DNA of 64,000 nucleotides, from NCBI GenBank assembly GCA_951406725.2, contig OX597825.1, forward strand, positions 81,158,001 through 81,222,000, given 5' to 3'. Source of the DNA: Octopus vulgaris (taxonomy: Eukaryota). Below are positions 2,842 through 45,889 of this stretch, piece after piece. The notes beneath the pieces were generated by a model, which was not told where the DNA came from, searched no databases, and was given only the letters and a program-made list of their open reading frames with translations. Positions within the stretch are counted from its first letter, which is position 1. Every line of letters starts with the position of its first letter. Made by a program: the position numbers and the translations under genes.

Positions 2842-2931
<90 letters not shown>

Positions 2932-2960
2932 GTCTGTGTTTCTGTCTGTGTGTCTGTCTG

Positions 2961-3017
<57 letters not shown>

Positions 3018-3021
<4 letters not shown>

Positions 3022-3366
3022 GGAAAAAAGCAACAAGAATGGATTAAAATCTCGGTACGATCGTTTCGTACGAGGACATCTTTAATAAGCTACAAAAAAT
3101 GCAGTGAATACAGATGGCTCGTACTCGTACTCGTCAGCTGACGAGTACGAGCCATCTGTATTCACTGCATTTTTTGTAGCTTATTAAAGATGTCCTCGTA
3201 CGAAACGATCGTACCGAGATTTTAATCCATTCTTGTTGCTTTTTTCCTATTTGTAATCACCCCACTTGTCGTATGGTTAACACCATATAGATTTCCGGTG
3301 CATCCTAGTTAAGGACCATATTCATGTGAATTCTTTAGAATCCACTTGAATCTCAATTACTTAACC

Positions 3367-3367
<1 letters not shown>
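3018..3367 (+). mobile_element. (TA)n-embedded fold-back element with hammerhead core, probable Penelope-like terminus
   Basis: Near-perfect palindrome 3018-3251 followed by a ~115 bp unique tail, with (TA)n on both sides. A homologous copy lies at 45659-45845. Confidence 0.8.
3138..3219 (+). ncRNA. Type I hammerhead ribozyme core (5' strand of stem I truncated)
   Basis: CTGACGA 3138-3144; stem II GTACGAG 3145-3151 / CTCGTAC 3195-3201; GAAA 3202-3205; palindromic stem III CGATCG; TA 3212-3213 (GUA cleavage triplet). Confidence 0.8.
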
Positions 3368-3423
<56 letters not shown>

Positions 3424-3494
3424 CATGCATATATGTATGTATGCATGCATGCATGTATTTATAAATGTATGTATGTATGTATGTATGTATGTAA

Positions 3495-3822
3495 GCTGGA
3501 CTCAAGGGTCATCTTCGTAGTCATAAAGCGAGACAGATGAGTGACAACCTGGCCACTGGTGGTGGTATAACACACCATACTAATCATATATGTCGGGCGT
3601 GTGGAAGAGAGTGTAATTCGGCAGGAGGACTTAAACGACATGCAAAGGTACATGAAGCCCAGTTACAACTACAGCCGGCTATTTCCAGTAAAGGTCTTAG
3701 TTGCCAATTCTGTACAAGACATTGTAGATCTTTAGCTGGACTAAAAAGTCACATTCGATCATAGCACCGATAACAGTTAAGCTGTGTGCATGGCCATACT
3801 CGATAACGAGGGGGCAGCCATC

Positions 3823-3824
<2 letters not shown>
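3495..3824 (+). mobile_element. 3' end of an RTE-clade LINE with tandem C2H2 zinc fingers
   Basis: In-frame [10 protein letters not shown] ... CRACGRECNSAGGLKRHAKVH ... CQFCTRHCRSLAGLKSHIRS*H. Short 3' UTR GCCATACTCGATAACGAGGGGGCAGCC resembles RTE 3' ends. Flanked by (TGTA)n. Confidence 0.7.
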
Positions 3825-3853
<29 letters not shown>

Positions 3854-3885
3854 TGTATGTATGTATGTATGTATGTATGTATGTA

Positions 3886-3938
<53 letters not shown>

Positions 3939-4247
3939 GTAGATAGGTAGACAAATATATAAACAGATGTGTCTGTGTATCGGAATCAAATGTTTTTGGC
4001 AGTGTTCAGAATAATAATAATAATAATAATAATAATAGTGTTGATAATAATAATATTGATAATAAGAATATTGATAATAATAAGGGTAATAAGGTTAGCC
4101 AGAAGAAATAAAGAATCCTGGAAAATTTGATAAGCTCGATATAAATAGACTAAAGAGCAGTTGTTTCATTTCTTGTTAACTTCATTATTATTGAGTGAGA
4201 GAAAGAGAGAGAAAGGGAGTGGGAAGGGGAGAGAGGGAGGGGGAGCA

Positions 4248-4830
4248 AGGTGACGATCTGGCAGAATCGTTAGCACTCTGGAGGAAATACTTTGTGGTTT
4301 TTCGTCCGTCGCTATATTCTGAGTTCAAATTCGGCCGGGTCGATTTAGCGTTTTATCTTTTCGGGGGTCGATTAAATAAGTACCTGTAATCGACTTAATC
4401 CCTTCTCTCAATTTTGAGGCCTTGTTCTTCCGGTTGAAAGGGTTTAAGGCGGCGAGCTGGTAGAAAAGTTAGCACGCCGGGCGAAATGCTTAGCAGTATT
4501 TCGTTTGCCGCTACGTTCTGAGTTCAAATTCCGCCGAGGTCGACTTTGCCTTTCATCCTTTCGGGGTTGATAAATTAAGTACCAGTTACGCACTGGGGTC
4601 GATATAATCGACTTAATCCGTTTGTCTGTCCTTGTTTGTCCTCTCTGTGTTTAACCCCTTGTGGGTAGTAAAGAAAGAGGTATTTCGTCTGCCGTTATGT
4701 TCTGAGTTCAAATTCCGCCGAAGTCGACTTTGCCTATCATCCTTTCGTGTTCAATAAGTTAAGTACCAGTGAAATACTATTGACTATCCCTTTCCCACAA
4801 ATTTCAGGCCTTGCGCCTTTAGTAGAAAGT
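4248..4830 (+). mobile_element. SINE A cluster: diverged monomer followed by a dimer
   Basis: Diverged copy 4248-4445, then head at 4448 with two bodies joined at about 4674-4686. Confidence 0.85.
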
Positions 4831-5526
4831 GCCTTTAGTAGACAGTAGTATTGATTGAGAGAACAATGTGTGTCATCAAAGTGACGCTGGGGTACAAATA
4901 TACCAAGGCCATTATTAATTATTATTAACAGAATTTACTTGTGATAGCAATTGACTGGTTTCGAAGTTCCAAAAGAACATGGCTAATCTTGTATATTCTG
5001 TCAGTCTGCCTGTCTGCCTGTCAGTCTCCACACACATTGTTTTTCTGAGTGGAAAGTTATTCAAAATGGTGTCGGTTTTACCAACATCGATGCGCATTTG
5101 AATTAGTCTACGACGTAGACTGCACCTAAAGGTAAATGTATTTAGGAACAAGAGGTTACCCAGGATTCAGCTGCCCCATGACTGAATAGATTACAGCTTT
5201 GACCATCACTGGTCTTAGTTACAAAGTTTTAGGTAAAATATTCTTTTCTCATTTTGTTATGTTTCGGGAGGGTCATTATGTCATTATTGGACACACGCAC
5301 TGTTTCTATTTCATTTCTTTGTTTTTCAATTTGTTAATCATTTTCTAATGTCGCTCCTTTTTTTATAAAGAAAGAAACATGAGTTTAAGGAAGATTTGGC
5401 AGTTTTACTTTTACTGCCAGATTGACCATGTACTCGTCCCTTTTGAACTGTTCATCGGCTGCTATTACATTTTGCCACCTAAATGTTTCCTGGCCCTTTC
5501 CTCCATTTTTGTTACTTGCTACGTTC

Positions 5527-6007
<481 letters not shown>

Positions 6008-6227
6008 GTATATTTATCTACCTGTCTGTCTATTTACCTACCTGTCTGTCTATTTACCTACCTGCCTGTCTATTTCTCTGTGTATGTGTTCTTATATATG
6101 TGTGTGTATGCGTGCGTATACACAAATATATATGTATACATATATACATACACATACACACACACACACACATATATGTGTGTGTATCTTTAATAATATA
6201 TTACGGATGTGTATTTATACATACATA

Positions 6228-6261
<34 letters not shown>

Positions 6262-7574
6262 TAACGTGAAAAATGTATGAGTAAACCGAGAGTGGTGGTG
6301 GTGGCAGTGGTTGCGGTGGTAGTGATTGCGGTGCGGGAGTGATTAAGGTGTAATTGGTGTGTGTGTGTGTGTGTGTGTGTGTCTGTGTGTGTGTGTGTGT
6401 GTGGTTTGGGTGTGGTAGGGTTAGGGTAGGGCAGGGCGCGATCCCGTTAAGTGGTGTGGTGTAGTGTGATATACGGTTACGAGGATGTCTTTTGCTTGCC
6501 ATAGAAATACAAAACATGTGTGCTATGCATTATGCAGAGTGTTTAGAGCCCAGTGGTGGGTCAGGGGCGGAGGCGTGGGGCGAGTATAGGTGACGTTGGA
6601 GGTGTGGCGCTTGGTTGTCTTTTTCCTTTTCTTCTTAATACCTGTGTGAATGTGTAAGTGTGAGTGTGTGAGTGTGCGTGAGGGGAAAGGGGGGCGGTAG
6701 GATGCGCTAATAAACTACTCGTCAAGTGTTTGGTTGAGTGCGACTTTACACCGCCATTGTTCCACAGGTGCGTTCATTAAAGATGTGTAGAGATGAGAAA
6801 CGAGTATTATTGATACTGTTGCTGTTGTTCTTAGCAGGACAGCGCGCCAGCAGAGTGGTTAGTGCGTCGTACAAAGTGCTTGCAGGTATTTCTTTCAGTT
6901 CTTTACAAACTGAGTTCAATTTCTACCAAGATCCAAATTACCTTTCATTTCTAAGGGGGATCGAGAAAATGTAATACCAGCCAAGGACTGGGGTGGGTGG
7001 GTCTTGTCTTAGATCACGCATCTTATCTTTGACAAAACAACCTTCGTGTTTAACACCGAAGAATTGGTGCAAGGCTTTTCTCGCGGCCAACACGTTGGTT
7101 GCAAGGCCTTCCTTAAGCACCTCTTCTAAGTTTCGAATTAAGTACTCTTCTTTCTATTTTTCTCTATCACCAATGCCTTACTAAACCTAATTGATTCTAC
7201 TCCATTTGCTTTTTTCTGGGAAAAACACCATTTGTTGTTAACGATTGCCCTCGTCCATGCCCGATTAACTAATTCTCTAATCCGGACACTGTAAATTTGG
7301 TACGCCGGAAGTGACCCGTTCAGCTTTCAGTAATCGTGTCCCCGCTTTCTAAACCTGTCAAGGTCGACTGTACAGATCACAAATGTGTGGCCTGTGTGGC
7401 CGACCAGTTTGAAAAGAGGACAACTTATATTAAACCTTATCTACTGACCAACAGAATACCCTGTCTACATAAGACTTGGATGACCCGATGCGATTTGTCT
7501 ACGCCCACACTGGCACATCCGGCAGATCGAGTCGCTTCCCGTAAGAAGCAACAGCAATTGTAACTGTAGAGATA

Positions 7575-7603
7575 TCATCATCATCACCACCACCACCACC
7601 ACC

Positions 7604-7637
<34 letters not shown>

Positions 7638-10668: not shown

Positions 10669-12524
10669 CACGGAGTTTGGCTGAAAAGTTCATCGGCCGA
10701 CGAAGATCTTCATAGCCATCTCCCTTGCGGCCCACACTCTTCTTCCCTCTGTGTTGCATTGCCCGGATCCCATTGGAAAAGCTTTCATTCTACTGATACC
10801 CCAAAAAGTCATCAATAGTAGAAATGACGTCATCAATAATAGAGATGACGACATCATCGCTGTGATACTTCTTATGAGCCAATTGCTTTTTTTTTTGTTT
10901 TTCATATTGGGGAAGAGATGAAATACCCATTTATTTACTACCCACAAGGAGCTAAACACAGAGGGGACAAACAAGGACAGACAAACGGATTAAGTCGATT
11001 ACATCGACCCCAGTGCGTAACTGGTACTTAATTTATCGACCCCGAAAGGATGAAAGGCAGAGTCGACCTCAGCGGAATTTGAACTCAGAACGTAACGGCA
11101 GACGAAATACCCATTTCTTTACTACCCACAAGGGGCTAAACACAGAAGGGACAAACAAGGGCAGAAGGGACAAACAAGGGCAGACAAAGGGATTAAGTCG
11201 ATTACATCGACCCCAGTGCGTAAATGGTACTTAATTTATCAATCCCGAAAGGATGAAAGGCAAAGTCGACCTCGGCGGAATTTGAACTCAGAACGTAACG
11301 GCAGACGAAATACCCATTTCTTTACTACCCACAAGGGGCTAAACACAGAAGGGACAAACAAGGGCAGACAAAGGGATTAAGTCGATTACATCGACCCCAG
11401 TGCGTAACTGGTACTTAATTTATCGACCCCGAAAGGATGAAAGGCAAAGTCGACCTCGGCGGAATTTGAACTCAGAACGTAACGGCAGACGAAATACCTA
11501 TTTCTTTACTACTCACAAAGGGCTAAACACAGAGGGGACAAACAAGGACAGACAAAGGTATTAAGTCGATTACATCGGCTCCAGTGCGTAACTGGTACTT
11601 CATTTATCGACCCCGAAAGGATGAAAGGCAAAGTCGACCTCGGTGGAATTTGAACTCAGAACGTAACGGTAGACGAAATACGGCTACGCATTTCGCCCGT
11701 CGTACTAACGTTTCTGCTAGCTCGCCAGGGAAGAGAGGATAATCAGATGGAACGAAATCAGGAGGTAGGGACCGTGACCAACCAGTTCAAAACTTCAATC
11801 ACGCACAGCAGCCATTGAAATCAAAAGCTTGCATGCTGGAGCACTGTCCTAATGAAACAAGATCCCTTTCGTCAGTTTTCCTGGACATTTTCTGTTGATA
11901 GCCTCTCGTAACTACCTCGGCAGGTTGGGATAGTACACGCCATTGATAGTGTGGCCCTTTTGAAGGTAGTCAATAAACACAAAGCCTTTTGAATCTCCCA
12001 AAACTGAGGCCGTCACCTTCCCTGCAGAGGAACATGATGACCTACTCACTCATCCTGGGTTAGGAAATGTTCAAGGCAACCAGCCGGTTCTGCCTGAAAC
12101 AATGTCAGATTTTCCTGTAGTGTTATCAACCCGGTTCACTTTTAATCAGGTCTCAGAAAATGGCGCATAATATTCTCAACTCTCTCACAGGACATGCTAA
12201 TAGCATTGACTATTTGATTTATAGTCAATCGTCTGTCATCTGTCAGCATGTGGGGGTGAATATGATCAATGTGTTCTTCGGTTGTAGCATTTGCAGGACG
12301 TCCAGGCATTGGGTTATCTTCAATATTGCACCTGCCCTTCCTAAATTCATCTACCTGTTTTTGCATTGATGATAAAGCTGGAGCGTCATACCGGAATATA
12401 GGATGCCGGTTTATCTGGAAAGAAACACTGCAGTTATTAATAAAAGGTTTGAAATTAATGCGTACAAGATTTCGCAGCTCTAGCATCGCTCATTCAGCCT
12501 AAGAACTCTTCAGCCCATCCTCGT

Positions 12525-17728: not shown

Positions 17729-18143
17729 TATTTCTTTACTACCCGCAAGGGGCTACACACAGAGGGGACAAACAAGGACAGACAAATGGATTTAGTCGAT
17801 TACATCGACCCCAGTGCGTAACTGGTACATATTTAATCGACCCCGAAAAGATGAAAGGCAAAGTCGACCTCGGCGGAATTTGAACTCAGAACGTAGCGGC
17901 AGACGAAATACCCATTTCTTTACTACCCACAAGGGGCTAAACACAGAGGGGAAAAATAAGGACAGACAAACGGATTAAGTCGATTACATCAACCCCAGTG
18001 CGTAACTGGTACTTAATTTATCGACCCCGAAAGGATGAAAGGCAAAGTCGACCTCGGCGGAATTTGAACTCAGAACGTAACGGCAAGCAAAATTCCATTA
18101 AGCATTTCGCCCGGCGTGCTAACGTTTCTGCGAAGTTGCCACC
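17729..18143 (-). mobile_element. SINE A dimer with 16-bp TSD
   Basis: TSD ATTTCTTGCTGTTTCT 17713-17728 / ATTTCTTCCTGTTTCT 18144-18159. Junction GAAATACCCATTTC near 17906. Confidence 0.9.
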
Positions 18144-45658: not shown

Positions 45659-45845
45659 ATAGGAAAAAAGCAACAAGAATGGATCAAAATATATATTTTG
45701 ATCCATTCTTGTTGCTTTTTTCCTATTTGTAATCACCCCACTTTATCGTATGGTTAACACCATATAGATTTCTGGTGCATCCAAGTCAAGTACCATATTC
45801 TTGTGAATTCAATAGAACTCATTTGAATCTTAATTGCCTAAACCG
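45659..45845 (+). mobile_element. Second, shorter copy of the 3018-3367 fold-back element
   Basis: Perfect 68-bp palindrome 45659-45726 and the same tail ending AACCG|(TA)n. Confidence 0.85.
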
Positions 45846-45889
45846 TATATATATATATATATATATATACTTATCTATCTATGTATCTA

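Follow-up and report, generated by a model that had tools for sequence, protein, structure and literature searches.

Why should a near-perfect palindrome in the genome of Octopus vulgaris have its axis exactly at the first base of a hammerhead ribozyme core? The question is raised by positions 3018–3251 of the 64,000-nt stretch of contig OX597825.1 analysed here (the window). This 234-nt segment comprises a left arm of 120 nt (3018–3137) and a right arm of 114 nt (3138–3251), which sequence comparison found to be exactly complementary save for six additional bases in the left arm; a 114-bp exact arm match is far above chance expectation. The core motif CTGACGA begins at the axis (3137/3138) on both strands, GAAAC occurs at 3202 on the forward strand and at 3067 on the reverse strand, and the junction itself has no loop. 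These features bear out the 234-bp palindrome, the position of its axis and the double core described in a first-pass annotation of this DNA, which took 3018–3251 as the unit. That span is right for the palindrome, but the insertion runs on to 3367, and the annotation overlooked the parent element: the palindrome is a stub of a Penelope-like element (PLE) that has intact relatives. The segment 3018–3367 is a 5′-truncated insertion of a Hydra-clade PLE into a TA repeat, and we consider it probable that its mirror arose from two primed cDNAs joined head to head and that the position of the axis is due to chance.

The insertion as a whole measures 350 bp (3018–3367) and is set in (TA)n, with target tracts at 2965–3018 on the left and 3368–3413 on the right. 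Element positions are numbered here from the C of the core (3138), which is +1, the preceding base being −1. On the forward strand, the family alignment identifies 3138–3367 as the main arm, a 5′-truncated 3′-end of the PLE (a piece of the pLTR plus a tail) that runs from +1 to +230. This arm continues for 116 nt beyond the palindrome (3252–3367) and reaches the usual 3′-end of the family; the one-sided tail so formed lies between two fixed 3′-ends and corresponds to the leader ahead of the ORF (ATG at +285) in full-length units. On the reverse strand, 3018–3137 is an inverted short arm that covers the element from −1/+1 to +114 and, judging from arm ends across loci, stops at the second fixed end of the family, site B (+113/+118). 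Site B is therefore the left edge of the palindrome; the mirror stops at this edge, which abuts (TA)n, and the flanking DNA is not mirrored. At the head-to-head junction (3137–3138), the element reads CGG then CTGACGA, and a GC common to both arms provides 2 nt of self-complementary microhomology. The six additional bases of the left arm (reverse strand, 3123–3128, with a placement that is ambiguous within 3118–3134) are a tandem duplication at the foot of stem II, within the ACGAG-T-ACGAG repeat of the element. An exact sequence search for a duplication-free palindrome with its axis at 3137/3138 gave no match. Compared over 230 nt, the insertion and an intact full-length copy show three differences, and no substitutions separate its two arms over the 103 nt compared, which supports the earlier proposal that it is recent. 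A second stub of the same family is located at 45659–45846, with perfect 34-bp arms and an axis at 45692/45693, near +82. It is older and lacks a ribozyme core, and its outer ends are identical in position to those of the 3018–3367 insertion. The stub is about 88% identical in the tail.

The parent family is young. The right arm together with the next 110 bases is 99–100% identical in all 40 scored matches (among 1847 first-look candidates), a 38-nt family word has 248 exact matches in the genome, and all 30 loci examined end about 230 nt past the core, followed by TA repeats. Two loci, L134 and L135, contain frames of 1072 and 1071 aa, respectively, that are free of interruptions and start at +285 of a 4.72-kb unit. 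Motifs in these ORFs include RWR at 37, DKT at 124, YRDD, CNCRIKSKC at 932 (CxCX5C), CQLC at 1029, and CIH at 1060. An alignment with 11 homologs displays reverse transcriptase (RT) motifs and an IIY…YVG endonuclease region (C-terminal GIY-YIG), an RT and GIY-YIG assignment that is based on motifs; the ORF alignment has no cysteine pair within the GIY-YIG core, and CCHH is absent. Pfam and PDB searches with the ORF returned no match. A total of 27 ORF homologs were found, 26 of them at 35–42% identity and one, a partial sequence named from Octopus sinensis, at 66%. The pLTR arrangement can be seen in L154 and L156, which belong to sister families and in which a hammerhead flanks the ORF on both sides, and in L134, where +22 to +237 precedes the ORF. 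L135 (G000:C11:54127300-54136800, minus strand, 2888–7612) is intact and one unit long; it starts and ends at about −246, which is neither of the usual ends, and is a permuted monomer. In L035 (2206–8001), we observed a 2.9-kb tandem duplication, at 99.5% identity, that spans an inverted arm and part of another RT and GIY-YIG element.

On these sequence features, the parent is assigned to the EN+ PLEs of the Hydra clade. This clade is defined by an RWK motif, a change of DKG to DKT, CxCX5C, and CxxC and CxH around conserved E and N, according to section 11 of PMC8557442. As described in that source, Hydra PLEs have in common with the present family a C-terminal GIY-YIG, RW(K/R) (RWR here), DKT, CxCX5C, CxxC/CxH, the lack of CCHH, a hammerhead (of canonical form here), and a (TA)n target. 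They are usually shorter than 3 kb, whereas the family has a 4.7-kb unit with Asn-rich inserts in a 1072-aa ORF; the same source treats the length of less than 3 kb as a tendency of the clade and not a rule (PMC8557442). Two long, frame-keeping Asn-rich inserts, missing from the homologs, were observed at about 480–930 of the L134 ORF, and they resemble those in Adineta Penelopes as presented in PMC3846280. The Neptune and Nematis clades were dropped because the CX2-5CxxC linker and the CCHH motif are absent. A non-LTR retrozyme was also rejected: retrozymes of this kind are described in 10.64898/2026.07.22.740005 as short non-coding tandem units with a hammerhead in each, whereas 3018–3367 is a single head-to-head stub of a coding element. 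Hydra-1_Obim, as given in File S1 of PMC8557442, was judged by eye to be a different family, with an unlike ribozyme sequence.

Intact copies of the family carry CUGANGA, GAAA, UH, and stems I to III, the make-up of a type I hammerhead, and are predicted to cleave. In the window, motif and fold place a type I hammerhead without the 5′ strand of stem I at 3138–3219 (forward strand), with the core CTGACGA at 3138–3144, stem II at 3145–3151/3195–3201 enclosing 43 nt, GAAA at 3202–3205, the stem III palindrome ACGATCGT at 3205–3212, predicted cleavage after A 3213, and the 3′ strand of stem I at 3214–3219. A mirror copy of this truncated hammerhead lies at 3050–3137 on the reverse strand, as recognized from the palindrome and a weak Rfam Hammerhead_1 match; the Rfam search gave no match at the gathering score (Hammerhead_1 at 17.8 bits against a cut-off of 34). 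Matches to miRNAs, present at the E-value level only and far below cut-off, were rejected as reflecting merely the hairpin shape of the mirror. Stem II with both of its extensions folds as the annotation had described, and its account of a palindromic stem III and a missing 5′ strand of stem I also holds, since a single one of the six 5′ bases remains in both copies (G 3137 ahead of the forward-strand core). The stem I complementarity looked for in untruncated copies is present: of 29 other loci, 28 carry, ahead of the core, a TTCGG that complements the CCGAG following the GTA triplet. The RNA of the 234-nt palindrome is predicted to form a single long hairpin of −197 kcal/mol, in line with the earlier claim that a transcript through it would form long dsRNA. 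Both ribozyme copies in the window are likely dead, because stem I has been lost and their fold would lose out to the long hairpin.

Covariation was assessed in 13 sequences drawn from the family and its sister families, in which 94.2% of cells are paired and four pairs are changed on both sides, figures that are not a probability given that the sequences are related and the structure was drawn from one of them. None of 500 shuffles reached the score, and slid controls gave at most 52%. The apical hairpin inside the 43 nt of stem II is 91% paired; within this subfamily, CATCT/AGATG folds as the middle helix of stem II, and the cross-family count covers one of its pairs (9/13). Stem III arms (n = 127) read ACGATCGT in 95 cases, ACAATTGT in 20, ACGATTGT in nine, and otherwise in three, and are mostly self-complementary, with CpG decay as a source that could alternatively account for the changes. 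PMC4209133 describes PLE hammerheads that act as dimers and have, as here, a two-bp stem III with a palindromic loop and a 7-bp stem II, and it reports dual ribozymes on opposite strands of PLEs, 100–700 bp apart. Unlike those hammerheads, the present one has a stem II lengthened by an extra conserved hairpin, and its two cores are in contact. File S2 of PMC8557442 lists Hydra ribozymes with 3–10 nt inside stem II, against 43 nt here. Further unrelated hammerhead-like motifs, some with a short stem II, were observed nearby in L140, L142, L143, L149, and L150.

The arrangement of the two arms recurs across the family. PLEs typically leave truncated, inverted copies that have a tail on one side, and the head-to-head layout is already known for them, as set out in PMC8557442 and PMC3846280. 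The EN+ PLE insertions depicted there (PMC8557442 Fig. 2, PMC3846280) have in common with ours an inverted head-to-head pLTR piece, a one-sided tail, a junction palindrome, and a microsatellite target, and their tail is 30–40 nt long against about 116 nt here. We sampled the first 100 position-ordered matches of the 38-nt word, merged pairs, and removed two segmental duplicates and the 3018–3367 insertion, which gave 88 loci. At least 35 of these are head-to-head, a lower bound because flanks of 1.5–2.5 kb hide some partner arms, while 34 consist of a lone tailed arm, 13 of a lone site-B arm, and six of another layout. The 137 arm ends fall at the tail end (75) or at site B (+108 to +119; 56), with six elsewhere. 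Axes of the head-to-head sister loci are spread all along the element, and pattern lists examined by eye contain loopless axes genome-wide at the stem III palindrome, TTAA, GGATCC, ATGCAT, and GTAC. As 3018–3367 has been cut down to the pLTR end, the entire insertion is mirror. A junction at +59/+56 was observed in four palindromic stubs on three chromosomes (G000:C1:67416415, C1:67464295, C5:106486722, and C14:29471431), and could reflect either repeated formation at these positions or the copying of one stub as a unit.

Genome assembly has difficulty with perfect palindromes that lie between microsatellites, and a chimeric fold-back read could in principle have created the one at 3018–3251. 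We find an assembly artefact of this kind barely credible. The left edge, at which the mirror ends with its flanks unmirrored, is the family-wide site B meeting (TA)n, a match to the family's second end that speaks for a real insertion; dozens of loci share the layout with differing junctions, and contigs of two other sequencing runs carry other fold joints of the family. The family is present in contigs of six sequencing runs, none of which spans the 3137/3138 junction, an absence that carries no weight, as two of the runs were read in part and the insertion at 3018–3367 may be private.

For a real insertion, we favour an origin by double priming. The enzyme of the element would cut both target strands in the TA repeat, and two cDNAs would be primed, one per cut end, at the fixed RNA sites +230 and +113. 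Both cDNAs would halt at about the same place and would then be joined head to head by annealing at the self-complementary GC at −1/+1, and the 6-nt duplication was likely produced by a slip of the RT. The start sites +113 and +230 are both at TA-like words, so brief pairing with the target may be possible. In L1 twin priming, two cDNAs from two target ends are similarly joined through microhomology, resulting in a 5′ inversion. The pieces of L1 do not overlap and their second site is not fixed, whereas here the arms copy the same segment from fixed starts. A PLE protein has been found in vitro to cut and extend both strands, with two internal start sites that bracket the tail (PMC11167929). 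This element, PAc (Poseidon, from Anolis), and the octopus family have in common these two internal RT start sites, an AT-rich target, and a hammerhead upstream of the starts. PAc belongs to a different clade and starts without homology, whereas here both starts are before the ORF, by TA-like words able to pair with the target. We found no published double-priming model for the inverted ends of PLEs in literature outside subscription papers, and one may still exist.

The two arms of one insertion share variants: polymorphic sites differ at 7 of 428 within an insertion and at 3957 of 13,082 between insertions (40 pairs), which suggests that a single RNA or a single source locus gave rise to both; the likeness between them could also have been raised by gene conversion. 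Junctions are symmetric within 20 nt in 12 of 34 cases against 2.9 expected (reached in 0 of 20,000 permutations; L119 was left out, having the same junction as L046), and overlaps of at least 2 nt, taken from BLAST ends, occur at 21 of 35 junctions. The identical arms with variants in common and the excess of symmetry would equally suit a single cDNA from +230 that turned back at the core and copied itself, the endonuclease then cutting the new strand at +113 and joining it to the left flank; indeed, Arkhipova et al. interpreted palindromes at such junctions as products of self-priming (PMC3846280). We nevertheless regard such a fold-back as very unlikely. In 10 of the 35 head-to-head loci, the 5′ reach of the inverted arm exceeds that of the main arm by over 30 nt, so the inverted arm cannot be a copy of the main one, and priming of two cDNAs at separate sites is favoured; the inverted arm is also the longer one in 8 of 11 untied near-symmetric junctions. 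The 13 loci with a site-B arm alone also count against self-copying, and the loop to be expected from a single-strand hairpin is absent from the 3137/3138 junction. An inverted arm could also come to look longer if the main arm had been trimmed afterwards. Taken alone, 3018–3367 would be compatible with either origin, because its arms are equally long.

If two primed cDNAs made the mirror, it remains to account for the axis. The annotation had proposed that synthesis turned back at the ribozyme, a proposal that the wider family does not support: the axes of sister loci lie along the whole element, and the left edge, as a fixed second end, points to a second primed cDNA. We collected copies breaking between −36 and +20, giving 94 rows, of which 13 were removed (nine ran past the search range, two broke at the anchor, and two were the 3018–3367 insertion). 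In the resulting 81 5′-ends, both arms of a pair are counted, and the pattern filter excludes those junctions that have C at two positions. A single end falls at −1/+1 (2.9 expected), which is not a hotspot, and the interval −3 to +3 is under-used, with 3 of 81 ends against 8.7 expected.

The folded hammerhead could nonetheless have been a roadblock for the two primed cDNAs, the RT stalling or slipping at +1 to +8 and both strands stopping and joining there, so that the axis would be a footprint of the fold in vivo. Sixteen of the 81 ends fall at +4 to +8 against 7.2 expected (fixed-window P = 0.002), and near-symmetric junctions are found at +8/+8, +4/+8, +6/+8, and −4/+3. The 6-nt slip is likewise present in three independent insertions, recurring in L178 and, with one later change, in L185, both of which have other flanks. 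A roadblock is still unlikely in our estimation, since the +4 to +8 interval was picked after the data had been seen; the scan-corrected P is 0.071, and an excess of 9/29 in the first set was followed by 7/52 in a fresh set (4.6 expected, P = 0.18). A second clump of 5′-ends (15/81) lies at −32 to −28, beyond the ribozyme and close to the edge of the search range, and the scarcity at −3 to +3 is also contrary to a block at the core. Moreover, with a self-complementary GTAC at +8 and with stem II as a 7-nt inverted repeat, this part of the element offers enough microhomology to attract junctions by itself. No peak of 5′-ends was seen by eye at the predicted cut (+76/+77) in 73 rows, three of which end at +76/+77 and about 66 of which are truncations scattered over +64 to +117; in a further check, a cut-site peak was not clearly present. 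The foot of stem II may cause a mild pause or act through microhomology. Under double priming, it is probably by chance that the axis coincides with the first base of the core, and a weak pause 3–7 nt away would have contributed to its position at most slightly.

A more elaborate version of double priming can be envisaged, in which a dimeric enzyme would copy one RNA twice. The cDNA from +113 would lead and the cDNA from +230 would tailgate and displace it, both would halt together, either at a break or on meeting the folded hammerhead, where the RT would slip, and the starts would be chosen by short pairing of the nicked (TA)n with TA-like words in the RNA. Such a model would explain the symmetric axes (12/34), the slightly longer inverted arm (8/11), and the slips at stem II, and we offer it as a doubtful idea: if it is true, this young family with intact ORFs would be a test system for the formation of PLE inverted ends.

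The most likely reading overall is a new PLE family with an already known layout, in which the coincidence of axis and core arose by chance. In the 64-kb window, a mechanical scan found no convincing long coding frame of a host gene. A dispersed repeat of about 350 bp, SINE-like by appearance, was observed in both orientations at 86–93% identity (587–941, 4451–4770, 11188–11726, and 17794–18143). By itself the 3018–3367 locus is ordinary, and the value of the family is modest: this Hydra-clade PLE is young, retains intact ORFs, and combines a long tail with a stem II that is both long and conserved, and its counts (the fixed second end, the shared variants, and the coupled stops) bear on how PLE inverted ends form. 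According to PMC5625713, Penelope is heavily edited in lizard and editing in octopus is very high. If transcribed, stubs such as 3018–3367 would each provide a self-contained dsRNA, in a group of animals whose editing is very high.
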